Below are positions 4,421-44,239 of a stretch of DNA of 64,000 nt, one piece after another. The DNA lies in contig CM119372.1 in the NCBI GenBank assembly GCA_051294905.1, forward strand, positions 26,476,001-26,540,000. Reading direction: 5' to 3'. The stretch comes from Botryllus schlosseri (taxonomy: Eukaryota). The position numbers and the translations under genes were made by a program. Position 1 is the first letter of the stretch. Each line of letters begins with the position of its first letter. The notes beneath the pieces were generated by a model. The model did not search any database and was not told the origin of the DNA. It saw nothing but the letters and a program-made list of their open reading frames with translations.

Positions 4421-4458
4421 ATTCCCCCCAAAATGTCAAAGTATGCCAATATCTCTCT

Positions 4459-12577: not shown

Positions 12578-12852
12578 GGAACTCCTGCACCAGACGCCGT
12601 CCTTTACTCGTACATGTGAATCACTATCTATTTAGTGTTTCACATGTATTTTTTATCTAAACTCAAGTGTTTCCCCATGAACATCGAAATTACGTATACA
12701 TTTTAGGGCTTATAATTCATGTATTGCATATAGAAGCAAATGCAACAAACAACCAATCTTCGCAGTACTACTTCTAAACATTTAAAGCAGATTCAAACAA
12801 GAAAAAAAATATTTTTTATTTTTTTATTTTTAATTACCTTTTGCCCACGACT

Positions 12853-13425
12853 TTATGCGCTGTTCGATCGTGTTCGTTTCACGATCCCGTGCGCGAGTCG
12901 TATATGTGAGTTAGGGATAGGGTCTTCACATAAAACTACGTCCGAATTGGGCGATTGCAATAGAGTTAATCCCAATTTTCGGAGATCGCATGAGTCCATT
13001 TCTGAAGCAGCTCCCCGAATATATTTATAGCTTGGCTCCTGTATGCTGAGGTGTACATACCTCCTACCCATACGTCTGAGTTCGCTATTCATGATTTGTA
13101 TGGCTCTGGTACGTGTAGTCATATGATACAATTTGTCATTATTTAAATATTGTTCATAATGAGGGGGTTCTCCCACGGTATGTCCCTGTGTGGCCGCCAA
13201 CCCTTTATCCGAGACTACCGCTCTGGTACTGTCCCGCATTATCTGTTTTAGCGTGGCCATCGGGAGATCCCTCCCCAACTTCTCTTTCAGGAGTTGTTGT
13301 ACGTTTTCCCAGGGATGAATACCGTTTTGACTGTTATCACATACTTCGTGTCTACAGTGACGTATCAAAAATCTCTGCACACTTTCGCGATCTCGTGCGC
13401 TGTTGACTGTGTGTCCCTTGGTGTT
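12853..13425 (-). CDS. C-terminal extension of pol, in frame after a single TAA; unknown function, no DDE integrase core
   Basis: Same frame as 13426-15294 with no other stop between 13425 and 13380. The segment RHCRHEVCDNSQNGIHPWENVQQLLKEK loosely resembles a degenerate integrase HHCC helix region. Confidence 0.5.
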   Translation of the reverse strand, partial: NTKGHTVNSARDRESVQRFLIRHCRHEVCDNSQNGIHPWENVQQLLKEKLGRDLPMATLKQIMRDSTRAVVSDKGLAATQGHTVGEPPHYEQYLNNDKLYHMTTRTRAIQIMNSELRRMGRRYVHLSIQEPSYKYIRGAASEMDSCDLRKLGLTLLQSPNSDVVLCEDPIPNSHIRLAHGIVKRTRSNSA

Positions 13426-15294
13426 TTAGCTTGAAGGACGAGCCGTCCATACTCCGGGGTCATCTTCTCCAGCAGCCATCTCCATCCAGTAAGAGCGGGA
13501 AAGGCCGTCGGAAGTAAACACTTGTAAGGTACTCAAGTGTATCACCTTTTCGATTTGGAAACCCGATAACTGATTGAGCCACCGTTGAATTAGTGGTTTA
13601 GGGCTTGGGTTCTTGGCATTGTCTGTCATTCTTTTCAACAGCCCAAACACGCCCATGTTGTCTGTGATGATTGTGAACGGTAGTGCGCGTAACATCGATT
13701 GCCATTTTTCCACAGAATCCTTCAGAGCCTTTAGTTCTTTTGTACAGGGGTCGTACACTTTCGCCGTGGGTGTAGCCCATTTTTGGCTGTAAAAGGCGAT
13801 AGGGTACACCTTGTCGAATGGTGGGGTACATCCCACTTCAGTCTGAAATATCACTGAACCAAAACCCACATCAGACGCATCTGATTCGACATACAAGGGA
13901 AGATTTGGGTTGAGATGATACAGCACCCTTGTATCGTTTAGCAGGGCTTGCGCTGTCTTGAAATCCTGCAGCAATTCTTTAGTCCAAAGCAACGGTGTTA
14001 TCCTGCCCTGAGTCGCTGGAACTTTTCCAGTGAGAGCATCAAACTTAGCCAGTTTTAGGCTCAACTCCGGTATATGTTCTGAGATATATCGAAGTGCACC
14101 AATCCACCCCCGGAGTTCGTAAATATTGTGGGGTGGCGCAAGTTCTTTGAGCGCTCGCACTCGTTCGGGCTGAACTTCGATTTCCTTACCCGTTACGGTT
14201 GCACCCAGCAGATTTACCCGTCGTTTACCAAAGAAACACTTATTGATGCTTACAGTCAGTTTCATCTTAGCCAGTTGTTCAAACACCAGTCGTAATAGCA
14301 CCAGGTGATCGTCGACTGTCTTCGTACTTAGAAATATATCATCAATGTAGGCCTCGATGGGCGTCGCTGTAGCTTCGTCCAGACGACCATGTTCTTTCAT
14401 GCACTTCCGGTAACTCTCTGTGATAGGCGTGACCACGCATTTCTGCATATTTGACATCCAAAAAGCCAGAGAAATGCGGAGCCCCATCGGCATCTTGCGC
14501 CATCGTATATGCATTCCCTTCACAGCAATGCCTACATACTGCTTAGACCTTTCCGTCATATCCATGTGGAAATAGGCCTTCTTCAAGTCCAGCAGGGAAA
14601 GTACCTCTCGGCCTTGCGCGAGCTGCTTTACGTCAGGTACAAGGGGTGGGGGAACCTCTATAGACTTGATGGCTGCATTCAGAGGCTGAAGATTTTGTAC
14701 AACCCTCCACGCTTGTTTCCATCCGTCCTCTTGTTTTTGCCGTTCATTCATTTTCTGGGGTACCACGAAAATGGCCAGTTTCCATTGGGCAAACCCTTGT
14801 TCAATGACTCCCAAATCCAGGAAGTTTTCTACGGATTCTTGCAATGCCTTAGCCTGTTCCTCCCCCTTCAGGTTATATGGACCTGACACAAATGGTTTGG
14901 TAGAGGGGTCCTTAAGTTCAATGTCACATTTATAATCCATAACTTGTGGAGCTTTGAGATGACCTCGCAGGTCTTCAAGTTCGTTCGCGTACGGCTCGTA
15001 AATCTCTCTCCAAACCTGGTCCGGTATGATTGTATTATCCGGACATGTGAGGTCCGGAGGTTTGTATGGAGATTTGGCAAGTTCAACTGCTTGGCTGCAT
15101 AGCCGTTCCAACTCTGTCCTCACTTTCTTATCAGTTCCATCATACAGTTCATACGTTTTTATCGGGCCACGACCATGTCTATAGAGGCCGTGGCGCGGTT
15201 TTGATGCCGGTGGAGAGAGAGCGAGGGTATCAGTAATCAGTGGGGCTTCCACACTCGATTTTTTTCTGCCTCTGAAGGGGCTGCGTGCCCGCAT
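13426..15294 (-). CDS. pol: Reverse transcriptase-RNase H, Ty3/gypsy-like (Ortervirales type)
   Basis: RT motifs: WRVVQNLQPLN, LLDLKKAYFHM, MPMGLR, YIDDIFL, KCFFGKRRVNLLG. RNase H motifs: VESDASDVGFGSVIFQ, YPIAFYSQK, KELKAL, IITDN, SDGLSR. Confidence 0.95.
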   Translation of the reverse strand: MRARSPFRGRKKSSVEAPLITDTLALSPPASKPRHGLYRHGRGPIKTYELYDGTDKKVRTELERLCSQAVELAKSPYKPPDLTCPDNTIIPDQVWREIYEPYANELEDLRGHLKAPQVMDYKCDIELKDPSTKPFVSGPYNLKGEEQAKALQESVENFLDLGVIEQGFAQWKLAIFVVPQKMNERQKQEDGWKQAWRVVQNLQPLNAAIKSIEVPPPLVPDVKQLAQGREVLSLLDLKKAYFHMDMTERSKQYVGIAVKGMHIRWRKMPMGLRISLAFWMSNMQKCVVTPITESYRKCMKEHGRLDEATATPIEAYIDDIFLSTKTVDDHLVLLRLVFEQLAKMKLTVSINKCFFGKRRVNLLGATVTGKEIEVQPERVRALKELAPPHNIYELRGWIGALRYISEHIPELSLKLAKFDALTGKVPATQGRITPLLWTKELLQDFKTAQALLNDTRVLYHLNPNLPLYVESDASDVGFGSVIFQTEVGCTPPFDKVYPIAFYSQKWATPTAKVYDPCTKELKALKDSVEKWQSMLRALPFTIITDNMGVFGLLKRMTDNAKNPSPKPLIQRWLNQLSGFQIEKVIHLSTLQVFTSDGLSRSYWMEMAAGEDDPGVWTARPSS

Positions 15295-16309
15295 CCAACT
15301 TCACGCCGGCGGTTTCAACGCCCGCCGGGGGCCCTTTTTCTGGAGAGGCGTGCATATGGCCTCCAGACTCTTCTTCATCCACAAAATTTGTAGTGTGGAT
15401 GTCGACAGCTGCTTTCAATGCTATCTTCTCGGTTTGCGGCACAACTGCTGCGGCCATGGAGCCGTCGTGAACGATTCCCACTCTTCTATCGTGGCGAATG
15501 CAGTAGCCGTAGTTTTCAGGAATCTCTTGAACATGTCGTTCCTGAGAGGTGCTAGCGGGGCTTCCGCGCTCAGCACGCAAGGATTTCGGGGTCACAGCGC
15601 TCACCCGACTTAATTTTGTATCCGTGGTTTCTCCACACTTGGCGCAAAATCCTTCCGAGAGACAGGGACATCTATGGTCCCGAGGGGCGTCAGCTGGGCT
15701 TCCAGTCTCGACGCTATGTAACGTTGCAGCTTCCACCGACCCATCACCAGTAGCAGCGTTGCAAGTACTGCTCCCAGCTATGGTTTTTGCCGTGTCCGAA
15801 TACACGGACAATGATAGTTCATAATTCACTGTAGTGGGATCCTTCAATTCTGTCGCTACTGAGGGTAGCCGTTGAACTTGCTCAATCCACTTTAGTCCGA
15901 TAATGTTCAACGGGACTCCTTCACCAGTTGCAAATGGAACCGGTAAGTTGTCCAGCTTGATGATGACGACAAAGTCGACACTGGATGATCCTCCTATGCC
16001 GCGTAATTTCATATCGAGTTGCTGCCTTTCAGTCCAGCTTTCTGGGTAGGCCGCTTTAACCGCATCTTGGGTTATCAGGTTAGGAACACTTCTTGTATCC
16101 GCAAGAAATTGTGTACCTGTTTTTGTGTCTGTAAAATACAATAATTGGCCGCCAAATAAGTCCCTAAAATCGGGCTGCGGCATTTTGTCCGGCAAATCGA
16201 AAAATGTAAATAAGGGTAATTCAGAGTTATGTATAGTCTTTGTATAATGGTGTAACACTAAATCGGGCAACTGATTTACCGGATCCATCAGCGCCCCCAA
16301 GCGTTTTTT
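15230..16309 (-). CDS. Retropepsin-like protease region, reached by -1 frameshift from gag
   Basis: FLADTRSVPNLI is a DTG motif with G->R. The flap-like LRGIGG and C-terminal NIIGLKWI (ILGxD/W-type) motifs are present. It lies between the zinc knuckle and RT. Confidence 0.75.
   Translation of the reverse strand, partial: KKRLGALMDPVNQLPDLVLHHYTKTIHNSELPLFTFFDLPDKMPQPDFRDLFGGQLLYFTDTKTGTQFLADTRSVPNLITQDAVKAAYPESWTERQQLDMKLRGIGGSSSVDFVVIIKLDNLPVPFATGEGVPLNIIGLKWIEQVQRLPSVATELKDPTTVNYELSLSVYSDTAKTIAGSSTCNAATGDGSVEAATLHSVETGSPADAPRDHRCPCLSEGFCAKCGETTDTKLSRVSAVTPKSLRAERGSPASTSQERHVQEIPENYGYCIRHDRRVGIVHDGSMAAAVVPQTEKIALKAAVDIHTTNFVDEEESGGHMHASPEKGPPAGVETAGVKLDAGTQPLQRQKKIECGSPTDY
16262..16309 (-). 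promoter_or_regulatory. -1 programmed ribosomal frameshift signal (A AAA AAC plus downstream stem-loop)
   Basis: The gag frame reads GCA AAA AAC GCT TGG GGG CGC TGA, and the -1 frame opens the protease ORF. GGGCGCTGAT...ATCAGTTGCCC can pair about 6 nt downstream. Confidence 0.8.
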
Positions 16310-18750
16310 GCCAGCACCAAACCCTGGTGCAATTCCTCATCAGTCCAGTACGGGTTATTACTGGGTTGGAATTGTGGGTGATAATGGGGTTCGTGATATT
16401 GGGTTTGGTGATATTGGGATGGGGCATATTGAGGTTGGGTCCATGCGACAGTATTAGCGTTATTGGCAGGCTGACCCCCCGTATTTGGTGGTCCTTGTGG
16501 CCCCCATTGCTCTCTATTATGCCAATGCGTCTTGTCACGATTTTTGGGTCTATCGTCATAATAATTCTCACATAGGGTGGTTCTCTCAATGAACGAGGGA
16601 GACCCCTGGGACGCAAAATACCGGTCCAAATCGGGTATTGTTAGTAGTTGGTTAGCCTCCAAAAAAGGAAGCCAATTTCTCTCAGTTGTTTCTTTGACAT
16701 GGGCGGGCACCGGTCGAACACGTTTTCTTATAACCCAGCCCAATACATCATCTTTAGTCAGTACTTGATCATTCAGCCATAATATGAATTTTACCACGCA
16801 ATTGCGAGATTGATGCCCCGGTGATTTACAATAATAACAGACCGACAAGGCCTGTCCCTGCGAGGGGTTTAAATACAATCCTAACGGCGCAAATATATTA
16901 GGGTTGCCAAGGAAATTATACCTCTCACCTTGGGTGTTCGAAATCTGGCTCGCCTCTTGACTGTTGGACGGCGTCAGCTGCGAATGGTCAACCCCGACAC
17001 CCGAATCTTAAGTCTGCGGAAGGCCGCGCCCCCTCTGGTCTGAAGCTGGCATCCCCGGAGTCGGTCGTGCGTTCTGAGAGTTTCGTGGACGCTGGCCGTT
17101 GTTTCTGCTCGCGTCGGGCTGTCTTCCCGACCTTCCTAGGACCCTCGATCCCGTCTGCCTCTCGGGTGCAGCACTCCTTCGATAGGGGTTTCCACCAGCC
17201 ATCACGGCATTAGGAAAACGATTTGTTTTGGCTGTACGACCAGGATTTCGTCGTGGCAGCGGATTACGATCCGGTGCCGGGTTTCGCTGACGTCCGGTTG
17301 CTTGCGCAGACTGGGGAGGCCTGCTAGCAGGCATGGGCGGCGGAGGGGGCGGTGGGGCTGAATTTATCACGGCAGGCGCTGTACCAGCTTGCACCGGTCG
17401 AGTAGGATAACTCGGCATTATCTGCCCCGCCGGTTGCACATTATAGATATGCACTGGTGGTAGGGGTGGCACAGTATCAGCATTCTTTCGCTTACTGTTG
17501 TGTTTGTCTTTTCGGGGGAATCTTCCCTCTTCTTGATCATCCAAAAATTCCGTGTTCCAGAACATCTGCAATTCCTCAGCCACATTTCTCCAAGAGCCAT
17601 ATTCATACCCACGGATTAAGATCCTAAGGGCCTGAGGGAGTTGACGTCGTAAGTGTCTGAAAAGGCGCAGTCCATCCGGATTTTTCGTGATACAATCACT
17701 CATATTAATTTCAAGCTGCTTTAGCGTGCTGTTGAGCAGTGGTAGTGGTTCGTCGTCCCAGGAGTAGTTATTTCGAAACTCATTTATGATTTTCTCATTG
17801 TTCGCCAATCCTTGTGGGTTGGACAATGATAGAGATCGCATGACAGACTCCCAGCTGGGTTTACCAGAATTGGTATTGAAGAAATTTCCCAATTGCCTGA
17901 CTTGTTTTTGGCGTCCAGCTTGTTTCAGCTTTTTCTGCATCGCATTTGACAATATGATATCTTCGTTAGTATCACCCTCCCCATGCTCAATGCGCTCCAT
18001 TGTATTCGCCATCCATTTGACGAGCGGCATGTCATCAGGGTCCATCATGAGCTGCATCATTTCTTTCTCAGTCTGAAGTCTGGCAGGTCTTTCGGCAACA
18101 TGTACTGTATGTGCATGAGCCCGGTTGCCAGCAAGCTCCCCATACGGGCCGCCGAATTGTCGTTGTGGGCGATTGGGGCTCCCATCAATGTCATCAGGGG
18201 TAGATTGAAATCTAGGTGGTCCTGTTGTGAACTGAGAAGGCGCATAATCTTCATCAAAATAACCTGGACCCCTAAGCGCGTCAAACAGCTCATCTGGTCG
18301 GCGTTCATGCTGTCGTGGCAAGTCATTTGGAGAGGGGCCCTCACATTTTGGCTCTCCTCCCTGGGAGACCCGGCCAGCTTCTTCGAAAACCACATGCCTT
18401 GTCTCATCAGGTTCACTACGCGCCCGACGCTTTCCTAGCGCGTTGAAAGTTAGTCGTACATTGTCCCGGCCATTCCTGGCTACCCCCGCCTGCAAAAACC
18501 TTGACGGTTCGGTGTATCTGGGTAGGTAATCGTCATCAAATCGCACTTCGACGTCTGATCCAGGGCCATTTTTAGGAGCAGGAGCGGGCATATTGTCTCG
18601 CTCACACCTGTCCAGGGACCTCGATCGCATCTGTTCCATTGCGTCCGACAGTCTCTGGCCGGGCGTCGTAGTCAGTCGAAGTGCAGGACCGGCCTGTTGT
18701 GATGTTCCGGTGCGACGAGCCGATGATGTTCGGGCCGTCTTACGTACCAT
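16288..18750 (-). CDS. gag: Gag-like polyprotein (~820 codons) with a CCHC zinc knuckle, interrupted by one in-frame TAA at 17008-17010
   Basis: ORFs 17008-18750 and 16288-16878 share a frame, and I read no other stop between them. Knuckle CYYCKSPGHQSRNC (CX2CX4HX4C); helical capsid-like middle; Pro/Arg-rich linker; located upstream of pro-pol. Confidence 0.8.
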
Positions 18751-18806
18751 ATCTCCAGATTTTGATCCGGGTAGAGTGGGATAGACTGCCGTTACTGTAT
18801 GACAAT

Positions 18807-19295
18807 CTAGGCCTTTGGTAACCTGGAGTTTAGGTCGGAGCGTCGCCCTATCGGTGCCTCGTCCAGATTGTTGATCGTATGACGATGGTAGCGTGGCAGG
18901 TAATATTGCGAGAGCGGGAGATGGTCGGGGGGGGGCTTATCTCCGACCGCTCTAGTGTGTTCTCTCCCTAACTCAAACTCGGCCTTCAAGACTTGATTCA
19001 GTACATCAGTGGACACTTTACCACTGACTTTAGCTGTGGCATCGCTGACTGCTTTCAAATCAGCTTGGGCCTGTTTAACCTCTTCTTTGGCTTTGTCCAA
19101 TTCTTTTACCGCTACTGGCAAAACTGCTTTGACGTCCTGAAGGAGCTTCGTCTGTTCAGCGGCGCTTTGAGCTAGTCTTTTCTCCTGGTCTCTTACGTTT
19201 TCGTGACGCCTTTGCGTAGCTTTGAACAGTTGTATACCCTGCTCAAGCTCAGCAACCGCCTCCGGCGATTTTTTCTTTCGGAAGAATTTCTTCAT
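18807..19295 (-). CDS. Small coiled-coil protein with basic N-terminus upstream of gag (accessory or matrix-like; unknown)
   Basis: ATG-initiated 162 aa, starting MKKFFRKKK and followed by heptad-rich Ala/Glu/Lys/Gln sequence; co-oriented, ends 57 bp before the gag ATG. Confidence 0.6.
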   Translation of the reverse strand: MKKFFRKKKSPEAVAELEQGIQLFKATQRRHENVRDQEKRLAQSAAEQTKLLQDVKAVLPVAVKELDKAKEEVKQAQADLKAVSDATAKVSGKVSTDVLNQVLKAEFELGREHTRAVGDKPPPDHLPLSQYYLPRYHRHTINNLDEAPIGRRSDLNSRLPKA

Positions 19296-19611
19296 CTCGC
19301 CTCCCTATTGACGGGCGATTTTGTTAGAGAACCGCTTGTTCGTAGTACCGATCTCTAAATCAGCTGCAAATCGCCGCAAGTAGATAGAGTTCAGTCTGGC
19401 AAATAGCGTGATCAGTACCGAGATGAAGGTGACGAAAGACAGAGTTCGAACAACGCAGGGATCGGGTCGCATCAGCTTCCAGCTCCCTTCTTATGCGAGT
19501 GGGGCTCAAGTAGTTACTTTTGACGCCGCTGAGAAACGGTTGGGACCTCCAGTAGTTTATAGTGTAGCTTGAGGTCTTTGTGGCCTCCAAGTAGCCTACA
19601 CTGTGTTCATA

Positions 19612-20050
19612 GGTGTCCGGTCAATACCGAGAAAACCATTACCGAGAATGCCATTACCGAGAATGGACACCACCGAGAATGGACATTACCGAGAATGGAC
19701 ACCACAGAGAATGGACATTACCGAGAATGGACACCACCGAGAATGGACATTACCGAGAATGCCATATATGCAATGCAGGCATGTTGTGCATATGCACAGG
19801 TCGTGTGAGTGCATCACGGCGTTGCCACATTCAGTAGCGATGCTCAGGTATAAATTTCTCGACAACGTCAGTCCCAGTTAGCTATATTCTTGACATTGGC
19901 CATTCTCGGTAATGTCCATTCTCGGTGGTGTCCATTCTCGGTAATGATCATTCTCGGTAATGTCCATTCTCGGTAATGTCCATTCTCGGTAATGCCGTTC
20001 TCGGTAATGTCCATTCTCGGTAATGGTTTTCTCGGTATTGGTATAGAACC
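19612..20050. mobile_element. Foldback-type MITE (Mutator- or Merlin-like) with internally repetitive TIRs
   Basis: 9-bp TSD GTGTTCATA at 19603-19611 and 20051-20059; GG...CC ends. Arrays of ACCGAGAATGGACA(TT/CC) on the left are mirrored by CCATTCTCGGT arrays on the right. Confidence 0.88.
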
Positions 20051-22635
20051 GTGTTCATATACCTCAGCGGATGCAAAAGTTCACTTGATGTATGTCTTTG
20101 TGTGATCCCCACTCTTTTCGGCGAAGTCGATCTTTGATTGAAGTCTTTGTAGTTGCAGCAGCTACAGCAATGACCGTTCAAGGCCCAGATGACTATTATA
20201 ACTCTTATACGGTAGCCTATAACCTTAATACAACCAAATACTCCAATCAGGTCGTGCAGATAACAATAGGGCTTCTCTATGCACATTACACATACTGATA
20301 AAAAACCAAAAGTTAACCTATTTATCATCATGCACGATCTAAAATCAAAATAATTCTCCAAGGTTTGTTTTCACAATAGATGTGATGGCCTTTCCTGCCA
20401 GATACATAATATGCAAGTGATATGCCAGTAGATGCCCACAAAAGTATCAGCACTCAGAGTCCAAGCCAACCAATTGGCAGATCACCAGTTCATTCATAAA
20501 AGTATCACAGTCTTTGCAGATTGCAGGTGTATATGTATATACCCATTTTCAGTTGAGGCATTGATTTCTTGTTGAGTCGTTTCTTCAAATCCTTTCGTGT
20601 CATATTCGGGGACAGGGAATTCCATCAGGATACGGGGGTTCGTGCGGGGCTCTGTAGTAGCGAGATTTCAAATTCAATATATCTCGAATACTGTTCTGGT
20701 TTGGTCCATCAGTTCATCGACTTCATGGACCTGTACCGACGCATTTATTCGCACTGCTTCATTTCTGTGTACCTTACAACTGTGGCAAGCAGGCGATCCT
20801 ATCAATGTATGCTTGAGAGCCTTTACGGGGACATCCGAACATCACCCTATGAGCCCAAACGACGTCAGACTCTTTCAATGCCGTCGTCAATGTTTTGTGG
20901 ATGTTCTGCTTCGGTGGTGGTGGAGGTGGTGGTGGTGGTTGAATTTGGCATCCATGCTGCCTACATGGGTAACAATTGTTCACAGCAGCTGCTATACAAT
21001 TCGTGTGGGCACCACATGACACATAGATATAAAATGCATACACTAATATAAAATAACGGCAACACTTACTGCAAAAGTTCGCATGCACGAAAAATGGTGG
21101 CCCCATTTAATGGCAGCATGATCGTAAAACTGGCATGCATACGACAATTCCATATAAGCATCACTCTATTTTCGACACATTTGCATCGCAAACCATAGTT
21201 TCAGTTCCGTACTGGTGATTGAATGGCTACGCCGCACTACATAGAGACGCCAATCAGATTATCCAGCCAGGCAAATATACCACAAGTTATGGCCAGCTCA
21301 TTCCAATCAACCTTCCGAAACTGCCCACTCTTTTCCAATCATTAAATTTAGATGGTATTTAAGATTTTTTTTTTATTATGACCAGGGCAAGCTGTGCCCT
21401 GCTAGGCATAATACTTATATACTTTTATATTTGATTTTCGATTTCGGGGTCCATCCACTCTTACATAGGGGCGGGAGGATATAGCCCATACTCTGCAATT
21501 ACGCATATAGGTTCGATTCCAGTGTCAAGAATGCCACCGTCTTAGCTCAATGAACACAGCTATCGTGCCAAATATGGCGCACTACTAGTGATATTATTCT
21601 TGACCAAGTATTATTCAGAATTACTTTCTTCGAATTGTCTTTATGCGTAAGGTTACAGATTTATAATTATAATAATCAATACAAACAAGACAGGGTGATT
21701 ACATATCTGTCGCTTCCGCGATGGCTTATTCCGTATTAGCAGCTTCATATGGGTAGCTAGGCGATTCATATAGACCACCGCTATTCTTTTCAGTTACTAT
21801 AGCCTTCTCCATACTCTAGTAGCTATAATGGTGCTATTTTCTTAGCTTTTAGGTGGGGAGGACCTTATCGGAATCCTAAAGAGACCGTGTCGATCTAATT
21901 AATATATACATAACTACATATTTGACTCATATCATCAATATTTCATTTTTGTTAGTACACTGATATATCACAAAACAAGCGAATTCCAAGCATCCCGTGT
22001 ACAGTACATATTTTTTTGTTTGTAATATTTTATTCGGCATGTTCAAAAAATGAAATATGCACGTTGAATAAATATACTCGCGACTTCGGTCACCTTGCGA
22101 AAATGGAAAAACATAAACGCAGAACAAAACCCACCATTTACGGTGGTGGGGAAAAGATTTTATTTAACAAAAAATAAATGCGAGAAATCACAAAATGAAA
22201 ATGCGATAATATATTGACATGGGCCAGAGAAGACATGGCCAGTTCGCCCGGGGACGGGGGGCACCAACAAACAAAGGCCTCCACCAAAAACACACAATAT
22301 ATGTGGTGGAGGCCGACAAACAACACAAAAATAAGGGGGCGAACTGGCGAGGTCCGACTGCGGGCATTATCATAAGTATTGTGGTGATGAAAATCCAAAA
22401 ATGAAGTTATGCAACATGAGGTGGGGGAACTCCTCCCCTTAGCATTTAGTACCACTCTGAAACTAAATTCGAAAACTAAAACTATCAGGGGTCCATTTAT
22501 GTTAATTTGGGGAGGAGTTCCGTGAATCAATCCAGTGTCCAGTTGCCTGCAGTCGAACCCCGTGATGGCTAGCGGACTAAGCTAATAACCAGAACACAAA
22601 ACACATAACAAATAAAAAGCACGTGAAGGGGGGGA

Positions 22636-28176: not shown

Positions 28177-28204
28177 ACTTGATCTTAGCCATAAAGGCCG
28201 AGAA
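28177..28204 (-). ncRNA. U2 snRNA 5' fragment (not a full gene) at the 5' end of the retrotransposon
   Basis: The minus strand reads TTCTCGGCCTTTATGGCTAAGATCAAGT, matching conserved U2 (..UUCUCGGCCUUUUGGCUAAGAUCAAGU..). The rest of U2 is absent. Confidence 0.85.
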
Positions 28205-34200: not shown

Positions 34201-35377
34201 TGAGACCTGTATTCTGCTCCGCAATTACTGGTAACTTATTGATTATAACTTGAACGATAGATCAACCATTGCAACTCGCGTTGAATATTGAATAACTCAT
34301 TGAAGTCTCAGCACTGTGCACCGCCTTAACCATTACTTTCAGAATGACAAGAGGGTAGATTGCTCGATCATTATATTGACTAACTGGTTGCCACGTCTTT
34401 TGCCGAAGAGAAAAAAAAAGCCTTCGGTAAGGTGACACTCTGTGATGTCAAAACGCCGTGTCCCCAATTTTAGCAACACCAGAACAATTCTGAAAATTCA
34501 ATTGACCGCGACAACTGGGTGTTTATAGGAACGCCTCAAAATTCGGGTTTATCAAAAATAGATCTTTCGTAACGCCTATGTGTCCATAATTGGTCAGGTA
34601 AACCCCAATCGTTGCCAGTTCCCATGCAAAATTGCACCGGAAGTCAGGTTCCTCCAATTGCAGCTTCCAAATAAGGCTTCGGGGCCGCTTTTTCTAACAC
34701 GCGATAAAATTTCTGACAGTACTTCATTTATGGAATTTCGCCCAACAACATTTAGATTATATCACCACTTTATCTCTAGCAAAATTTAGATACCAACAAA
34801 GTTGACAGGCGTAAAAGTTGTCGTTGATCATCGGCTATTTTTGTAGGTTAAGGTTTCCGAGTCGCTCATTAAGAATACGAGGGCCGTTCACGTGTAATTC
34901 TTTCTATGGCCCATTGACTGCACCGTAACATACGTGTTCTAGCACTTAAAAGGTGGCACGACGCTATACTTACAGTAGGGTCAGTAATTATGTGCAAAAG
35001 ATCCCGTTATTTAATTCAAATCGTGCGAACATTTGCGCCCATGGCCATGCAAAACAGCATGTCAACCCTATGTATAGTATAATTTCGCTAACCTTTTTTA
35101 GAACTTGTTTCCTCGCGTCGCAACGCACAATTTATTAAAAAAGATTTCAACCCAATTTTAATTAATCTGGTAGATGTGATAGATTATAGCCGATTATGTG
35201 CCAGCCACTCTATATTTCATTTTTTAAACAAGCTGTTCGCGAGGGTTCCTAAAGGTTGCTATCCTAAATCACTTATTTGAATTAATTGAACAATTTTACG
35301 TCATCCCGTAAGTGTAAGTTTTGTCTTCAAATTATATACCATTAAATCTTGCGGCAATGAATTGGAACCATTCCACT

Positions 35378-38300
35378 TCAAGAGTCATTTTCGTGGTTTT
35401 CTATCGCCTCCAACCAATTTCCCGTGTTGTTACGCTTAATCACCCCTTTCAGATAGTTGGCAGAGTCCCGATATTTACATAGTCGATAGGTTAACAATGC
35501 CATAGTTACGGCGAAAATTAAGGTTATGGACACAATAATCTTATTGAAATGTCGATCAAAGTTTAAATTTTTAAAATTTTCCGCACGAAATTCCGTCCCT
35601 AATGCATATCCACTTTCGATTCGATATAGTTCACGTAGCCTGATCAAATATAATGTACTGGTGTTTGCAGGATTATCCATTTTAATCTCGCCCGGTAACG
35701 TTTCATTTGAATCTATAACTTCGTCAGATGTGATTTCCAAAGGTATTATTGTGGGTCCGGACGCGATAGCGATGTTGTTAAGGGCGACAGGAATTGTTGT
35801 TTTTTCTGAATTAGTTTGACGGACAAGGTTTGTGCTCGGGTCCAGATTCGAGGCATTATCACGCAATGTCGTATGGACGGCAGGTGAACTACTCAATATG
35901 GGGGATTTATCGTGGGAACTAACTACCAAACGCGAAACCTTCGGAATCTCAATTTTATGTAGCCTCGAATAACCTGACAAATTTACTTCAGAGGTGATTC
36001 CAACCTGCGTATGAGTCACCTCGTTCCACTAGGTGCTTGCGCCGATAGGTAAATATTTTGGAACCGTTGTAGTATTTTGGTCACGGCTGAAATAAGCTAA
36101 AGACTCTATTAGAGGCGACCGTGGGTTTAGAATTGTTGAGGTATCTCTGTTATCAGGTGTAGCTACCGAATCGGGAGTAGTTGTTTGCTCAGCGAGGGTC
36201 GTACCATAATCGTTAGTCTTTATATCCGACACTGACATTGTAGTTGACGTGGGCATAATAATTTCATCATCTTTCGTTTGTTTCCTATTTAACAGACCGG
36301 AAGGCACTTTGTTAACCCATGCTGGTGGGGTATTGTTGCGTATTTTGTAAATATTCAAAGTCTTACCTGCGGCCTTCGTTCGTAAATTTCGGCTATTCAG
36401 CTTTTCCAAAGGGTCGGTTGTCTCATACCCAAATGATTCGCTGGTGATGTTATTTGCCGATTTAGGCTGGGTACTAGTAGCTGATTCTCGCGGGGACGCG
36501 TTCGAGTGTAATTTGCTTGATAATAACATCGCCGCTGTAGTTGTTCGGTAGAGTTTCTGCATCAAGTTCTGTACCTGCTCAAACGTGTTGTTACTTAAGG
36601 TTCTTGCGGATATATTTACTTGCACTATATGTCCACTGTCACCATTTTCATTTGGAAAGTACGATGTAGTGTCTTCCACACTTGTGCTTATTGAGGTGGC
36701 CAGCGTAGTATCATTTGAATTAGTAACAGTGGCCCGTCCAGGGGGTGTTAACATTGATTGGATTTCCCCTGCGGAGATTTCAGATCTTATGGTTGAGACT
36801 GTAGAGTCTACTTTAGAAGTCCGAATGCTAGGTGTGGTTTTTGGATTAAGCATATTCCTAATATTGGTCAGGGGTTTTGTTCCGGACTGCCGAGTTGACA
36901 GACTAGCCAGTTTCACCATTTCCGTGGGTGAAAAGGTATTCGTGGGCCAAGTCAAAGGGTCAGCTGTCGTCTTGTCCATAACAGTTTTTGATAATGACGG
37001 GAATCCAGAAGTAGGGTTGGTCACAACCGACGATACTGTTGCACTTGTATTTGAAGTCAAGCCGATATCAATACCAGACGCATTTTCTGTGTGAGTATAC
37101 GCTATGCTACTTCTACCAACGTTTCTGCGCGTAACGGAACCAGATTTAGACATGCTCGCATTAATAGTTGTGGGTTTTTCAGACGTAACTATAGCACGGG
37201 CGGTGTCATTTCTTACATAGTCGAGCCACTGAATATTATCGGGTGTTTCGCTAGCATTATTAGTAATATATTTCGCGGCTCTTGAGTCAGAGGTGATCAG
37301 TTCATGCTGGATAGCAGGAGAGTAGGGCTTATATCCACTAGTAATTGTGGACATCTCGGATGTACGGGTGGTACTTTTCTGAATTTGGCCCCCATCCGGA
37401 GTCACCTTTGTCGTTGCGATATTACCATTACTGTGAGACTGAGAGATTTTAGAGGCAATGAGGGTAGGTTCGTAGGTAGACTGGGCTTCATCGTAAGTCT
37501 CTACATGCATTTTTGTAGATCTGGTAGCGATTATAGGGGTATTTGCTGGGCTGTGAGTGACAATTTCGGTCACCAGATCTGTTGTCTGTGGACTAGAGGT
37601 ATGGGGAATGCTCTCATTTTTACGATACCCGTAAACTGAATAAATTAGGGCCCCTCGACAAATTACTGCTTTGTAAACTGTATTGGGGTCAAAAAGCGTA
37701 AGGTTTGCCATTTTGGCATTCAATAATAGATTTGCGGCTGTCGCACTCATCAGTAAATCCAACACTTGTCGGTTAAGATTTCGTCCTATCCTATGTCGAG
37801 TTTGATTGACACTGTTCTGAAACCTATTTACTTCATTGGTAATTGCATATTTGTCCTGTAATTGTAATAGCTCATTTCTTAAAATTTTCATGGGAGCTGC
37901 CATCTGTCTGAGTAGCAGTTTGGCCTCAGCAAGATACCTTGAGGCAGTTACTTGCAAAAAATGGCTTAGTCCACGTAGTGATTTGCTTATTTGATCCTTG
38001 AACGGTGACCATATCATAAAATATCTGTCTGGCCGAGGTCGTGAGCATGAAACTCGGATATCAGCTCTTAGCGGATGGATTATGGCTTCATTAAAATTTG
38101 GGTATATGGGCTGATTTCCCGCCACATCGTAATAGACCGAGTCAAACACAAGCGCGGTATCAAAACTGCCAACGGGAGATTCGCATTCCGGTTTCTGAAG
38201 TTTCCTCAGACAAAAGGGGCTATTTTTTCCCAACGCCGGAAATGATCTATAAACTCTCAAGTTCGGGTTTTCCAGTATCGGCGAGCCGACCCTGTAATTC

Positions 38301-39145
38301 ACCCCTCTCGTCTGTAGCCATACTATGTGTTTATTCAGAGTAGGCATAGGAATATCGTCGGGCCATAGGATTCTTAGAGTGGTTTGTTGCCTACTTTTCT
38401 CATGAACGACAAAGTCCCTGTGAGCTAGATTTGCAATTTTCCGACTACCAGTGATTCTACAACGCGTACAAATAATTCTACGTGTTCGTCCGCCCCTATT
38501 ATCACAATAAGTGAACCCGTTTTCCCTAATCTTCCAACGTGAGTTTCCTCCCGTTGGACTGGGCCTTGAGCAGTAGGCATTCACCTCTAGGTATTGGCTT
38601 AGAAAGTGGATGACCAACGCCTTATAGACCGTCAGCACTCGTAGGGTAGTAAATGATATAGGGAGTTCATCTTCGCCTATCACCCATCGCCAGACATGTA
38701 TTAGATCAACACCAGTACCACGTCGGTATGTTATGTCCTGTTTTATGCTTCCGGGCGTCAATTCTGGTAATATTTTTGAATTATTTCGGACACATAAACA
38801 CTCCCTCTCAAATTGTTTTGGAGATCGCCAATATTTGCCGGCTCTTGGAGACAGGATTCTGGACAACCTTTGTGAGTGGGCCTTTACGGCACCAAATTCT
38901 ATTGTATTAGCATACACGGAATAACGTCCATTTGCGCGTGACCAGTCAATTCCAATTTTTGGGAAAATCTGACTTAACGGCACTCGTTTAATACCTACAA
39001 ACTCACTAACTCGATTCCATCCTGTGTGATTAAACTCCACCACTGGCTCCGAATTTACAGCTGACAATGGGAGTAGTTCCGACGCATACGCGTGATTTAT
39101 CACACCAACACAGCACAGCAGCAATGCCCATATAATATTTGCCAT
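35378..39145 (-). CDS. Type I membrane glycoprotein paralogous to the env SU region, with a long Ser/Thr mucin-like stalk; one in-frame TAG at 36029-36031
   Basis: Signal peptide MANIIWALLLCCVGVINHAYA; blocks align by eye to 40278-42668; S/T-rich C-terminal half. The same-frame ORF 35378-36019 supplies the TM helix IIVSITLIFAVTMALL. Confidence 0.8.
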
Positions 39146-40277: not shown

Positions 40278-42668
40278 TCAGTAGCCGAGATTTCCAAACC
40301 TATCGGGATTCTTTGCAATTCGCCGCGCAGTTTTTGATGGATTCATTAAGGTCACATAAACTTCCATTTCCGATTTGTTGTTACGCTGTCTTATCGTATT
40401 TCGGGATCTCTTCTTTTTTGGAAAACAAACTGGGTATAATTTAACAATCAAAAATAACGTGACTAGAATTACAGCAATGATGATAATGGGTGTTATGAGG
40501 GGTTTGAATATGGCACCCAATCCTGACCCAAAGATGCCGGTAATACCCTCGATCCCTTGAGAAATAATATCCCCAGCCCCAGAAGCTAAAGACTTTAAAA
40601 TTACACCAGTCCCGTTTGTGGCACTTTTCACTGCGTCGCCGAAATCATCAAAGAACTCTTCCCCGATTATACGATTCAAATGAGCAAAGCTGACATTATC
40701 ATGTTCTAAATTTGTAGTGTTGATGTAAACACTATGGTTCACCTCTTTTTGCCAACGTTCTATTTCGACTTCCGCCTGGTTGTCAATGGCTTCTATTTCT
40801 CTCCGTGTGGCTTGTAGTTCCAACGCTTGGCTCTGAGAAACATTCACATATTCATTCTTTAATTTGACAATTTTTTCAGCAATTTCACGTAGACTTAGGA
40901 TCCCTGACTTTATTCGTACGGCATAAGCTTTGTTCTTGTCGAATAGGGGTTTTGCCGTTAGGTTCTGTAGTTGTTGCATAACTAATTGGTTAAGGGAAAG
41001 TTCAGCAATCGACATTTCTTGAACGGTCTGGATAGTGGACAAATGGCTATCTACCTGAGAAATTATCATATTTCGGTTGTTCCAAATCATACTTGTGATT
41101 GTTTGGAGTCTTGCCTCAGTTACCGCCCCCTTACGTAGATTAGTTACAATCAATTCATTGAGCTTTTGAGCTCGAGCTACTCCTATGAGCGAGAGGTCAT
41201 TCAATCCGTCTGCCACTGTTTTCAGATCACTTTCAATTTTAGTAAACCTCGCGTTCATCTGAAAAGTCAAGTCGTCCATGTTGCGGTTTATCATGCTTTC
41301 AAGGTTAGAAGTGATAGCCAAGCTTAGAATCGTCGAAAAAGCCAGTACGAATAATGAGAAGAATAATCTCTTTCGTCTCCCCTTTCCTCCTGGAAGATTA
41401 GGATCCCTAGTTTCCAAATCAGTTTTGCGACCTCCTAATACGACAAGCGGTTTCCCAGGGTACCTTTTTAGATTGGCCTGGGAATCATATATTACTTGGT
41501 CCCAATAGGCCAGTTTCATATGTAAACTTCCCACAGGATCTTTACAGATTGCCTTGTTTCCTCGTATTCGTCTGACACATCGTTGATCTTCTTTTAGTAA
41601 TGAAGGATACAGCCGGTATATTGGCAGTCCTCCAGCAATTTTTGTAGGTATCTGTGAATCCCTGTAGTTCGTTCCGTACTTGTTAGGGTAGGAGGGAAAA
41701 ACCCAAACTATCTCTTCTGGTAAGGTTGGTTTGTCCCCGACTATGGCATTTGACCATACGGGCGTAGAAGGGTGATAGTTGTGTATACCTGGAGTAAAAT
41801 CCATTTCAATGTTCAATGACGTCCTTAGATTTCTAGTTTCGTCTTCTTCCTGAATGATAATCTTGTTAGGATGGGGTCGATAGGCAATGACCAATCCGCG
41901 AAAAGAGCAGGTAGTGCAACGCAGCATCTGTAGCAAGCGAACACAATCTACCAGATCTGTAGAATTATCATTGTAGACATTCCTTTCCTTCATAATCTCT
42001 TCATTCGCCACCGTATCGGTGACACAGTTTATTTTAACACTCGAATATGTGGCAAACATTTTTAAGGCCTTTAGTTTGTACTTCATGATGGCTATTTGAA
42101 ATAGCCCTCGAGGATTCCACCCCCTTACGGTTGAGTCATCGATTTTCCATCGCCATGCTAACCGGAAGTCATTTCCGGTAGGCACTATATATGTTCTCTC
42201 TGACTCCAGGGCTTTTAAGTCCAAATCTGGGGTGATATATGCCTTTTGACGCCTACATGTGCATGTGTTTTCAAACGCATTTATGTCATCCCAATAATGT
42301 CCGGTTGGATACATGTATTCTTGAAACGTGACCCTCTCAGCCTTGACATAGCCAAACGTCGATGAGAAAAACAGACCCGGGTTTGTAAAATTGTGAGTCG
42401 TGTTTCTTATTTCCCAGCACTTTGCTAGCGAAATAAACTCCCACGGTGACGACTCCAATTTAGCCCAATCTTTAGGAAACTCTCTGGGTAATTTTCCAAA
42501 CTGGGCCTGAGTTATAGTTCTAGCTCTGTCCTCATAGTTGGGTAAGGTGCTTGATGTGGTCGTTATATTGCTTGCAGGTATTGTCGTTCCTTCCGCCCAA
42601 GACAGTAACAAAGCAGATGTATGAAGCAGCATACAACCGTAATGACCAATAAAAGAAACGCTGACCAT
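40278..42668 (-). CDS. env: Env-like class I viral fusion glycoprotein (796 aa, intact)
   Basis: N-terminal signal peptide; many N-X-S/T sites; furin site GRRKR directly followed by hydrophobic LFFSLFVLAFSTILSLAI; heptad-repeat helices; Gly-rich membrane-proximal region; TM PIIIIAVILVTLFLIV; basic tail. Confidence 0.85.
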   Translation of the reverse strand: MVSVSFIGHYGCMLLHTSALLLSWAEGTTIPASNITTTSSTLPNYEDRARTITQAQFGKLPREFPKDWAKLESSPWEFISLAKCWEIRNTTHNFTNPGLFFSSTFGYVKAERVTFQEYMYPTGHYWDDINAFENTCTCRRQKAYITPDLDLKALESERTYIVPTGNDFRLAWRWKIDDSTVRGWNPRGLFQIAIMKYKLKALKMFATYSSVKINCVTDTVANEEIMKERNVYNDNSTDLVDCVRLLQMLRCTTCSFRGLVIAYRPHPNKIIIQEEDETRNLRTSLNIEMDFTPGIHNYHPSTPVWSNAIVGDKPTLPEEIVWVFPSYPNKYGTNYRDSQIPTKIAGGLPIYRLYPSLLKEDQRCVRRIRGNKAICKDPVGSLHMKLAYWDQVIYDSQANLKRYPGKPLVVLGGRKTDLETRDPNLPGGKGRRKRLFFSLFVLAFSTILSLAITSNLESMINRNMDDLTFQMNARFTKIESDLKTVADGLNDLSLIGVARAQKLNELIVTNLRKGAVTEARLQTITSMIWNNRNMIISQVDSHLSTIQTVQEMSIAELSLNQLVMQQLQNLTAKPLFDKNKAYAVRIKSGILSLREIAEKIVKLKNEYVNVSQSQALELQATRREIEAIDNQAEVEIERWQKEVNHSVYINTTNLEHDNVSFAHLNRIIGEEFFDDFGDAVKSATNGTGVILKSLASGAGDIISQGIEGITGIFGSGLGAIFKPLITPIIIIAVILVTLFLIVKLYPVCFPKKKRSRNTIRQRNNKSEMEVYVTLMNPSKTARRIAKNPDRFGNLGY

Positions 42669-42955
42669 TGTGCAGGCACGGGTACGTCAGGAAAATTCAT
42701 TAATTATCAAATTTGGCAATATGTGTAATTCTATCAGTCTGTAAAAGTAGGAACAGGGTTAGACCTGTCTCTTCTAGGTTCTACAGATACTCTTGATCGA
42801 TCAGTTAATTTAATTGTTTAGTCATGAGATGTAAACGTTCTACCTAGGCAACATGGTACATATTTTCGGGAAAGAGAGAAAAGTTGACGTCATACGTCAG
42901 TCCGGTGTTTGTTTGTGCAAGCAGGTTTGGCCTAGGAAGGTCCGGATATTCGGTT

Positions 42956-43981
42956 CTAGGTGCAAGTAGCCTGTCGCATGTCAAACCGCGGATCTTCGCG
43001 TTTGGATTTCAACAAAGCCGCAAATACATTACTCCTGCCATATCGCCGTTTATATAACCATTCATCAACGTACTCTTGCAGAAGATGCCTTGCTAAACCT
43101 CTTGAGCGCCTCAAGTGGTATTTCAGGCTACTCCATTGGGCCTCCTGATCATTAGAATGAACAAAGGCTTGAGAAACGAACCCAATTGAATGATCCACGG
43201 ATCTGTGTTGATAATCCTGGCCCCACTGCTCTATTCCATTGTAGGACGGGTAACAATCTGTCACTATGGTAGAGCCTCTGGCTATATTTTCGACGAGGAT
43301 ACGTTTCATGACCTCTGCAGTCCTGTCTGCCGTTATTTCCGCGAACATTTCTCCCGTCGTCCGGTCAGTGCCACCTACAACCCAAATAGCCTTTCTAGCG
43401 GCCTGGCCCCCGGCCACGCCACGGCGGCGCTTAGCTAGATGGGATTCATCAACTACCACAGTTCTCTGATAGCCCCCCAGTTTCTTCGTATGGCGTCGTA
43501 CGTCTGCTGCGCACACCCGTCGTAAATGGCCAGACCATACCACGATTGATCGAGGGCTAATTTCGGATTCGTGCGAGATGTGATTTTGGACACTATCATC
43601 TGCCCAAAAATACGATATTATAAGTAATTCAGGGAGTCCAACCTTGCTGTTGTTGAATAGTGACCATTTTCGTATAGTACTCGTCGTGCGGCAGTCTTTA
43701 TCCCGACAACGAAACCTCCACCCGTCATCCATAGTACGCGTCCGTTCCTCCACCATCGGGGCTGAGCACCTTTGACAATCCATTTGCCGAGCCAATAATC
43801 CCTGACTCCTCAAGAACATGATGCAATCCCGATTGTTTAGCAGAATTCCAGATTGGGCCAGGCGCAGAACGTTGTGAGGTACTCCTGATGCTTCTGTAAT
43901 ATTAAGACGGCAAAGATACACGTATTTGTATGATATTTCCCTTTTAACCGAACGTATAATGTAGCCGGCATGCCTCTGCAC
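42956..43981 (-). CDS. Merlin / IS1595 (ISXO2-like) DDE transposase, intact; first ATG at 43819
   Basis: Zn ribbon CQRC...RCRDKDC, SIR-like TIRKWSLF, LGG..VVVDES, WVVGG, I..GSTIVTDCYPSY, HRSVDHS..FV, HSNDQEAQWSSLK, LQEYVDEWLYKRR. Confidence 0.93.
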   Translation of the reverse strand: MQRHAGYIIRSVKREISYKYVYLCRLNITEASGVPHNVLRLAQSGILLNNRDCIMFLRSQGLLARQMDCQRCSAPMVEERTRTMDDGWRFRCRDKDCRTTSTIRKWSLFNNSKVGLPELLIISYFWADDSVQNHISHESEISPRSIVVWSGHLRRVCAADVRRHTKKLGGYQRTVVVDESHLAKRRRGVAGGQAARKAIWVVGGTDRTTGEMFAEITADRTAEVMKRILVENIARGSTIVTDCYPSYNGIEQWGQDYQHRSVDHSIGFVSQAFVHSNDQEAQWSSLKYHLRRSRGLARHLLQEYVDEWLYKRRYGRSNVFAALLKSKREDPRFDMRQATCT

Positions 43982-44239
43982 AAAATGTTACATTTTTAGG
44001 TTTGAAGGTTTGCTCGCAAGCGCCCACTCCAGTCGTCATTTCTGGATTTGGCAAATCCACGTTTTAACATCCTAGGGCTTATAATACACCTGTTCCATAT
44101 GGGTCGTACTACTCAATCCACCCGCTAATTTTCCATTTATGTGCAACATTTTCACGTATATAGTGCAACACTTCAATATCTACACTCAGTGTTCCCATTA
44201 TACCCCGTTATTGGTTACGGCCTTTAATTCACTTGTACC

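Follow-up and report, generated by a model that had tools for sequence, protein, structure and literature searches.

We examined a 64,000-nt window of the Botryllus schlosseri genome (assembly GCA_051294905.1, contig CM119372.1, forward-strand positions 26,476,001 to 26,540,000; G000:C2:26476001-26540000 in our searches) and found in it a 31,662-bp block, at window positions 12578-44239, in which a Merlin/IS1595-type DDE transposase gene stands together with gag, pol and two glycoprotein genes. The block interrupts a 159-bp satellite (Tandem Repeats Finder arrays at 4458-12577 and 44237-50148). Its first bases are GGAACTCC at 12578 and its last are CTTGTACC at 44239; aagatttc abuts it on either side, and the flanks, when joined, form an intact satellite monomer. 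The original prediction for this DNA was of a single 31,662-bp insertion into a satellite monomer, with an 8-bp target-site duplication and GGAAC/GTACC ends, and removal of the block indeed restores the monomer. From the window copy alone the duplication could be read as anything from 8 to 11 bp; we set it at 8 bp because nine other copies fix that length.

Those nine copies were fetched after searching the genome, a 495-Mb assembly of 219 contigs, with each end. GGAAC...GTAC[C/T] ends are present in 10 of 10 copies, and the 10 copies have ten perfect 8-bp duplications, every one different. The left-end pattern occurs at 19 genomic places, against 0 for a reversed control, and 15 loci pair a left with a right end in proper orientation, 12.6-33.5 kb apart. 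The second long copy, on contig C8, is 25.7 kb long and colinear with the window block at ~95% identity; it sits in unique flanking DNA, on a different chromosome from the window copy. Because this copy is colinear yet has unrelated flanks and its own duplication, the whole unit must have transposed at least once. The terminus comparison that had been proposed for this genome has thus turned up independent copies that agree in their ends and gene order and differ in their 8-bp duplications. Insertion, borders and duplication are all confirmed.

The C8 copy lacks two stretches of the window block, 22015-28203 and about 19611-20053. Both are therefore taken as real nested insertions, and since the C8 copy has neither, the unit itself measures about 25 kb, the size that had been predicted for the block minus its nested insertions. 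The terminal inverted repeat is weak, reading GGAAC at one end and GGTAC at the other, both inward; the match over the first 23 positions (14 of them, ungapped) has a P of about 7e-4. About 330 bp at the 12578-side terminus are conserved in the 10 copies.

Two further observations concern the termini and the target. The sole word of at least 13 nt common to both terminal regions is TAGGGCTTATAAT, found at 12704-12716 and 44073-44085, in the same orientation at both ends and 127 and 155 nt from the termini; it is TATA-like on the coding strand and partly conserved among copies. The host satellite has a higher-order period of 476 bp (three monomers) with ~91% matches, and at least 88 monomers lie in the window.

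Gene content of the unit

All long open reading frames (ORFs) of the element are on the minus strand (Table 1). A co-oriented set of transposase, two related glycoproteins and gag-protease-reverse transcriptase (RT)-RNase H had been predicted, and this set was confirmed.

Table 1. Features of the insertion and its borders, in window coordinates. LTR, long terminal repeat; MITE, miniature inverted-repeat transposable element.
Feature	Position	Strand	Basis or remark
Left target-site duplication, aagatttc	12570..12577		same 8 bases past right end
3' terminus (gene orientation), outer inverted repeat starting GGAAC	12578..12600	-	14/23 match to other end
Tpt1/KptA-like (RNA 2'-phosphotransferase family) domain, pol C-terminus	12856..13425	-	PF01885
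RT (YIDD) and RNase H part of pol	13429..15300	-	RVT_1 E 2.4e-16; RT_RNaseH_2 E 8.8e-18
pol N-terminal part with retropepsin region	15230..16336	-	sequence compared with C8 copy
gag: N-terminal coiled coil, proline-rich regions, one CCHC zinc knuckle	16288..19295	-	zf-CCHC E 4.7e-5
Candidate -1 ribosomal frameshift heptamer, A AAA AAC	16303..16309	-	read from sequence
Nested hairpin MITE, ~440 bp, not the element's own	19611..20053		missing from C8 copy; repeats found
Non-coding leader upstream of gag	20054..22014	-	no family match, no long ORF; retained in 13-kb derivatives
Nested non-LTR retrotransposon, not the element's own	22015..28203	-	missing from C8 and short copies; RVT_1 E 4.9e-32
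7.2-kb non-coding stretch	28204..35377	-	no ORF of at least 120 aa, no family match
Second glycoprotein, gp2	35378..39145	-	signal peptide, env-paralogous N-terminal domain, mucin-like region, C-terminal anchor
env-like glycoprotein	40278..42668	-	signal peptide, Cys/N-glycosite-rich ectodomain, RRKR, helices, anchor, read from sequence
Merlin/IS1595-type DDE transposase ORF, 343 codons stop to stop	42956..43987	-	PF12762
5' terminus (gene orientation), inward GGTACAAGTG	44217..44239	-	ends compared among copies
Right target-site duplication, aagatttc	44240..44247		copy of left

The transposase matches PF12762 (DDE_Tnp_IS1595) at E 1.6e-11 (44.9 bits against a cut-off of 27) and has a CxxC...CxxxxxC zinc-ribbon-like motif at its N-terminus. 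The candidate catalytic triad is D180 (VVVD180ESH), D244 (IVTD244CYPSY) and E282 (NDQE282AQW), assigned from Merlin block motifs rather than by residue-level alignment to a reference; the three motifs are retained in another lineage of the element and in relatives outside this genome. The gene lies about 250 bp inside the element's 5' end. No ATG precedes the conserved N-terminus, and just upstream of the coding region, near 43893, is a polypyrimidine-AG acceptor-like site that is conserved in another lineage; these two features together make it likely that the transposase is produced via a spliced leader.

In the window copy the gag frame is broken by a 2-bp indel at a poly-C run near 18940, while the C8 copy has a 1011-aa open gag frame. 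The language-model look-alikes of Gag are retrotransposon Gag clusters (score 0.89-0.93, a lead only), and a PDB sequence search gave only a chance-level match. The pol ORF region runs from 16336 to 12856, and in the C8 copy pol is uninterrupted at 1171 aa. Against that copy the window pol shows a 1-bp indel that splits the retropepsin part from the RT frame, DTR in place of DTG at the protease active site, and a stop codon at 13426-13428 that cuts the C-terminal domain from RNase H. The gag and pol frames overlap by 48 nt. Within the overlap, 21 nt ahead of the gag stop codon, is A AAA AAC, a candidate slippery site of the retroviral type: its register is that of gag, and slipping by -1 at this point leads into the pol frame. 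The hairpin downstream of this heptamer was no better than those of shuffled sequences (z -0.35).

The C-terminal domain of pol matches PF01885 at E 1e-8 (35.9 bits, cut-off 26) and aligns with the Tpt1 structure 7kw8 at E 2e-4. The catalytic tetrad of Tpt1/KptA is Arg-His-Arg-Arg; aligned to 7kw8 by HMMER, the domain retains the first Arg-His and the last Arg but has Ala at the third position, as is also the case in the swapped-order lineage described below. The domain is present across lineages (window 12856-13425; L047:7352-7927; L061:3-839) and in the outside relatives P0004, P0011 and P0015. A literature search aimed at it gave no description of a Tpt1-like domain on pol. The Tpt1 family is also a family of NAD-dependent ADP-ribosyltransferases.

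From the end of pol to the element terminus is 275 bp, and pol had been predicted to stop about 270 bp from the terminus without an integrase core. Our Pfam scan took in 56 of the 77 ORFs that reach 75 aa, the other 21 being inside the nested retrotransposon, which resembles a long interspersed nuclear element (LINE), together with the uninterrupted gag and pol of the C8 copy. No integrase (rve core or H2C2 finger) was matched at E up to 0.1 in these 56 ORFs or in the 1171-aa C8 pol, so that the profile search for rve over the interval, which had been proposed as a check, agrees with the prediction. The same 56 ORFs and the C8 gag and pol gave no Pfam match to a tyrosine recombinase or a second nuclease. 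As to LTRs, the block has no direct repeat of at least 40 nt except the repeats of the nested MITE, and no LTR-flanked version was found, either in the window block or in the metagenome relative described below. There is no internal copy of the element ends of at least 13 nt apart from the one 13-mer given above, and no internal complementary region of the kind seen in DIRS elements. Primer-binding-site motifs for initiator Met and Lys3 tRNAs (16 nt) gave only chance-level matches with 3 mismatches, and there is no tRNA gene in the window.

The env ORF (42686-40278) encodes 802 aa; after RRKR come a hydrophobic stretch, long helices over ~300 aa, a membrane anchor and, last, a short tail. Helices at 435-754 were returned by both AlphaFold runs, with a confidence (pLDDT, the predicted local distance difference test) of 35.1 from a single sequence and 38.8 from 6 sequences. 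A PDB sequence search gave no match, and neither did Pfam, its Fusion_gly and Baculo_F families included; the language-model look-alikes are class I fusion proteins (score 0.88-0.90, again a lead only). From these features env is a candidate class-I-fusion-like, furin-cleavable glycoprotein. The other glycoprotein, gp2, has ~1,250 aa; its enclosing ORF (39286-35378) has 1,300 aa and one stop, in frame at 36029-36031. It is homologous to env over ~500 aa (24% identity, E 8e-20), and beyond the env-like domain it consists of a long Ser/Thr-rich mucin-like region and a membrane anchor.

The two long copies were compared by the Nei-Gojobori method. The ratio of nonsynonymous to synonymous substitution rates (dN/dS) is 0.11 for both transposase and env, 0.14 for pol, 0.25 for gag and, for gp2, 0.45-0.66; these values are upper bounds for the active lineage, because some of the substitutions postdate insertion. 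Purifying selection thus maintained transposase, env, gag and pol during the divergence of the two copies' ancestors.

The nested insertions and the non-coding parts make up the rest of the block. The non-LTR retrotransposon has ORFs of 260 aa and 1506 aa, a short poly-A at its 22015 side and a GC fraction of 0.53-0.56; it lies on the element's own strand, and a few target bases were lost at its site. The MITE has a 9-bp duplication, GTGTTCATA, and GG...CC ends, and is built of 16-nt subrepeats, CATTACCGAGAATGGA, and their complement; in appearance it is an ordinary MITE of the Merlin type, inserted in the leader that precedes gag. The C8 copy has a GG...CC MITE of its own (880 bp, about 10259190-10260070, with the 8-bp duplication AAAAACGC), which interrupts the gag/pol slippery heptamer. 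Between the long copies the 28204-35377 stretch is 86-94% identical with indels, below the conservation of the genes; its 28204-31165 part is common to the 13-kb derivatives considered below. Searches of this 7-kb part by tblastn and tblastx found no remnants of a second transposase or of the extra genes of other lineages.

Linkage across the genome and relatives elsewhere

Protein searches of the genome, in which only the best candidates were scored, gave at least 117 transposase, 71 RT, 97 env and 93 gag matches. For pairing we used 100 transposase and 70 RT matches, and counted two as linked when they were on the same strand and at most 60 kb apart. RTs at least 56% identical to that of the window have such a transposase in 59 of 66 cases, and 3 of the 7 without one are on small contigs; RTs below 56% identity have none (0/4). 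Seen from the other side, an RT accompanies 49 of 51 transposases at 49% identity or more and 36 of 38 at 35-41%, together 85 of 89, and none of 11 ordinary, more distant Merlin transposases (at most 32%). The linkage of transposase and RT is near-obligate. The original prediction had allowed that the transposase might occur only in small ordinary Merlins; the 85 of 89 transposases of at least 35% identity that adjoin the RT clade say otherwise.

At least eight diverged lineages preserve the linkage. One has 7 copies with 21.8-23.5 kb from transposase to RT. Another, of 37 kb and about 25 copies, has two transposases: the first lies ~33-38 kb from the RT, and the second, a distant one, about 13 kb upstream of it. 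Two lineages have RTs just 58-61% identical to that of the window. The env gene directly follows the first transposase in all lineages, and gag, pol and env have long open frames in dozens of copies, in at least eight lineages and down to 58% RT identity. In the two nearest lineages all 9 of the 9 copies have the 5'-terminal motif of the window element, 277-300 bp upstream of their transposase; among the matches listed, the window's terminal motifs locate ends in the window lineage and these two near lineages only. The two-transposase lineage has extra genes, among them a leucine-rich-repeat ORF (L064, G000:C5:27030901-27032600; L063) and, just upstream of the second transposase, a conserved ORF of ~165 aa with 67-70% DNA identity between copies at 9 places.

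A comparison of RT and transposase for congruence had also been proposed. Their identities to the window fall in the same rank order across eight lineages; env departs from the order, reaching 63-69% identity in one lineage against 58-59% for its RT. That env is out of rank order points to exchange of the env module between lineages.

In one lineage of 6 copies the gene order is swapped, with the transposase within 0.6 kb after the RT. One of these copies (L061, G000:C1:24299501-24303500; L062) reads leader, gag, pol, transposase, env, gp2. Its pol, the Tpt1-like domain included, ends at a stop codon, and the transposase ORF starts at the next codon in the same frame; an acceptor-like site is 87 bp past the pol stop, and env and gp2 follow. 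More than 3 kb upstream of gag in this lineage matches the 7-copy lineage at 68-79% identity. With its gene blocks swapped relative to the window, this lineage has the transposase in the place that integrase takes in retroviruses. In the window lineage both element ends fall between pol and transposase. The swap could stem from a circular stage, from recombination or from template switching.

Among 1.84 billion representative proteins, those closest to pol (37-47% identity) combine RT with RNase H, often together with a Tpt1-like domain, and lack rve; from ~31% identity down come Ty3/gypsy polyproteins with rve. A Styela clava protein is 44% identical over the protease region. The best solved structures for the RT are 8r0s 'Enzymatic polyprotein' (E 3.5e-15), Ty3 RT (E 2.2e-13) and foamy virus RT, with a trivial margin between the first two; 'Enzymatic polyprotein' is presumably the name of a caulimovirus polymerase. 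One outside pol relative, P0011 (ENA, on a 361-kb contig), has an AP-endonuclease-like Exo_endo_phos stretch after the Tpt1-like domain (E 4.7e-7), which may be a different integration module or the product of a merged gene model.

A 13,906-bp metagenome contig (L068) has gag, protease-RT-RNase H and a 1338-aa env with RTRR and a fusion-peptide-like stretch; its RT is 34% identical to ours, and within its 13.9 kb we found no integrase, LTR or inverted repeat. From this gene set, integrase-less gag-pol-env elements of the same clade exist elsewhere. Assemblies of other sequencing runs gave env relatives at 51-53% identity and transposase relatives at 57-78%; one env and one transposase relative are each on a 7067-bp contig, possibly the same one.

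A virus-like unit and its probable mode of integration

We think it probable that the interval is one defective copy of a ~25-kb virus-like element that moves as a single unit and whose integration is done by its Merlin transposase. This reading takes in the mobility of the unit, its ends and duplications, its gene content, the want of integrase and LTRs, the selection on its genes and the linkage across the genome, all of them observed. The original prediction was likewise of one mobile unit in which a transposase replaced integrase: the unit, the ends and the missing integrase have held up, and for the insertion step we infer that the transposase cuts the ends and inserts the DNA. Reverse transcription would make the DNA that is inserted, and particles would form.

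A life cycle can be sketched on this basis. Transcription would start from the element's 5' end, and the transposase, and probably env, would be made from spliced messages. Gag and Gag-Pol would package the RNA and copy it into DNA, env would allow spread from cell to cell, and the transposase would insert the new DNA in integrase's stead. Since LTRs are lacking, a circular or end-joined template, after the manner of pararetroviruses, might be the simplest source of full-length DNA with both ends. This is speculation by analogy; a circular template would solve the problem of restoring both ends, and might explain the block swap.

Several points weigh against this reading. A unit of 25-40 kb with at least 7 kb of non-coding DNA is large for an RT-copied genome, and the inverted repeat is weak. 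As the two tRNA motifs reveal no primer-binding site, the termini are not redundant and the ends have no internal copy, we can identify nothing in the sequence by which RT could restore both transposon ends in the DNA. Of the 15 paired-end copies, thirteen are ~13-kb derivatives (some enlarged by insertions) without RT, env or transposase; they have identical internal deletion boundaries and ~4 kb of their own DNA unmatched in the long form, and the single long ORF surviving in them is the protease region (331 aa). The abundance of these derivatives means that mobility in trans needs none of RT, env or transposase in cis, as plain cut-and-paste would predict. Both long copies of the window lineage are broken; the window copy has the 2-bp gag and 1-bp pol indels, the stop before the Tpt1-like domain, DTR for DTG, the gp2 stop and the two nested insertions. 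The fold of env was not modelled with confidence (pLDDT 35 and 39) and env matches no Pfam family, and the metagenome contig L068 has no transposase within its 13.9 kb. Four RNA runs gave 48, 9, 3 and 26 reads on 28205-44239, without joints or start sites; the reads examined made up 6-13% of each run and nearly all fit only partly, so these counts are no evidence either way on expression.

A bolder form of the same reading, which we put forward tentatively and with clearly less confidence, is that the copies are endogenous forms of enveloped reverse-transcribing viruses which make up an undescribed group, probably one of tunicates, with pararetrovirus-like replication by way of circular or end-joined DNA and chromosomal entry by a Merlin DDE transposase in place of a retroviral integrase. 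If so, the group would rank at order level as a new type of retroelement or virus beside LTR, DIRS, Penelope and LINE elements, the Tpt1-like domain fused to pol would be part of the replication chemistry, and the block-swapped gene order would be the trace of a circular stage.

The main rival is a large Merlin transposon that once captured an LTR-less, env-bearing retroelement and moves by cut-and-paste only, RT never making the inserted DNA; the retroviral genes would then be passengers or have another use, for instance to pass on the element's own message in a vesicle-like manner. Ends, duplications and transposase are purely Merlin-like, the derivatives without RT, env and transposase are the commonest form in the window lineage, no primer-binding site, LTR or terminal redundancy was found, and the unit is 25-40 kb with long non-coding parts. 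Idle passengers should decay, however, and gag, pol and env have dN/dS of 0.11-0.25, with open frames in dozens of copies from at least eight lineages down to 58% RT identity. The transposase clade is, moreover, almost never without RT (85 of 89 have it), and the frameshift site and the pol-adjacent transposase resemble a working retroviral expression plan. We consider this rival unlikely.

Repeated nesting of two parasites, a Merlin with transposase and env and an integrase-less retroelement that borrows the transposase in trans, is much less likely still. It could account for the transposase-env block being upstream of gag-pol in most lineages and downstream in one, for the second, distant transposase in many copies, and for the lineage in which env identity (63-69%) departs from RT identity (58-59%). 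Each unit, however, has one pair of ends and one 8-bp duplication that enclose all genes, with no internal copies of the ends, uniform spacing within lineages and all genes on one strand, and in one lineage nothing but a stop codon separates pol from the transposase. That the block is an assembly artefact, or a set of chance neighbours among unrelated repeats in a satellite, where misassembly is common, we dismiss, as it is already refuted by the independent copies: the colinear one in unique DNA of another chromosome, the 15 paired-end loci and the dozens of related units.

If integration does proceed by way of the transposase, several matters follow. Retroelement orders are defined by their way into the chromosome, namely integrase, tyrosine recombinase, GIY-YIG nuclease or target-primed nicking, and a cut-and-paste DDE transposase of the Merlin/IS1595 type would be a further entry route, used by a retrovirus-like, env-carrying element. 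The element would also be the second natural merger of transposon and virus after Teratorn, on the reverse-transcribing side. It bears on how reverse-transcribing viruses without integrase become heritable, on the modularity of the integration step in the evolution of Ortervirales, and, with units of 25-40 kb and extra genes such as the leucine-rich-repeat ORF, on the genome-size limits of RT-based replicons. The family is abundant, with dozens of copies that have long open frames, so these questions are directly testable.

Comparison with known systems

In the literature covered we found no description of a Merlin/IS1595 transposase together with gag, pol and env, in agreement with the original prediction, which knew of none; subscription journals and Repbase reports were mostly outside this coverage, and an earlier description may exist there.

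The nearest likeness in gene content is with the errantiviruses, env-carrying Ty3/gypsy elements (Metaviridae) that one study describes across metazoans including tunicates, with LTRs and integrase (PMC13524379); the words 'transposase' and 'Merlin' are absent from that main text. Shared features are the CCHC gag, the aspartic protease, the Ty3-like RT with its RNase H, an env that lies downstream and has a furin site and a fusion-peptide-like stretch, and an overlap of the -1 frameshift type. In contrast to errantiviruses, the element has neither rve nor LTRs that we could find, has GG...CC ends and 8-bp duplications, ends its pol in a Tpt1-like domain, and has an env without Pfam family. The defining features of an LTR retrotransposon or retrovirus are missing: no integrase or LTR was found, and there are no TG...CA ends and no 4-6-bp duplication.

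DIRS elements are alike in having a Ty3-related RT and RNase H and in having given up integrase and normal LTRs for another recombinase. Their recombinase is of the tyrosine type, their repeats are split or inverted and come with an internal complementary region, and they leave no target duplication. Our element, on the other hand, has no recombinase match and no internal copy of its ends, and has an 8-bp duplication in every copy; with no tyrosine recombinase match and no internal complementary region, it lacks what defines a DIRS element. The Caulimoviridae likewise have protease, RT and RNase H and lack integrase and LTRs; they infect plants, have neither envelope nor transposase, and keep an episomal circular DNA genome that is copied from a terminally redundant RNA.

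Described Merlins are usually small, with a transposase gene only. According to the main text of a Merlin survey they make 8-9-bp duplications, have terminal 5'-GG along with a DDE_Tnp_IS1595 domain, and include one family with a very imperfect inverted repeat (PMC8101967); the term 'reverse transcriptase' occurs 0 times in that main text. The element resembles them in its DDE_Tnp_IS1595 domain, N-terminal Cys-rich motif, 8-bp duplications, GG ends and imperfect inverted repeats. It is unlike the usual Merlin in its size (25-40 kb, with six coding regions in the ~25-kb unit), in its gag, pol and two glycoprotein genes, and in apparently needing a spliced leader.

According to a review (PMC10175614), which does not mention Merlin, Teratorn was the first case in which a cut-and-paste transposon had fused with a DNA virus. 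As in Teratorn, a virus-like set of genes is enclosed by the ends of a cut-and-paste transposon along with its transposase, and the whole multiplies in the genome as one unit. In Teratorn, from medaka, the partners are piggyBac and a 180-kb alloherpesvirus; here they are Merlin and a reverse-transcribing, retrovirus-like set of 25-40 kb, in another group of hosts. The element lacks the features that define LTR elements and DIRS elements, and has the enzymatic and terminal features of Merlin in a form far outside the usual one.

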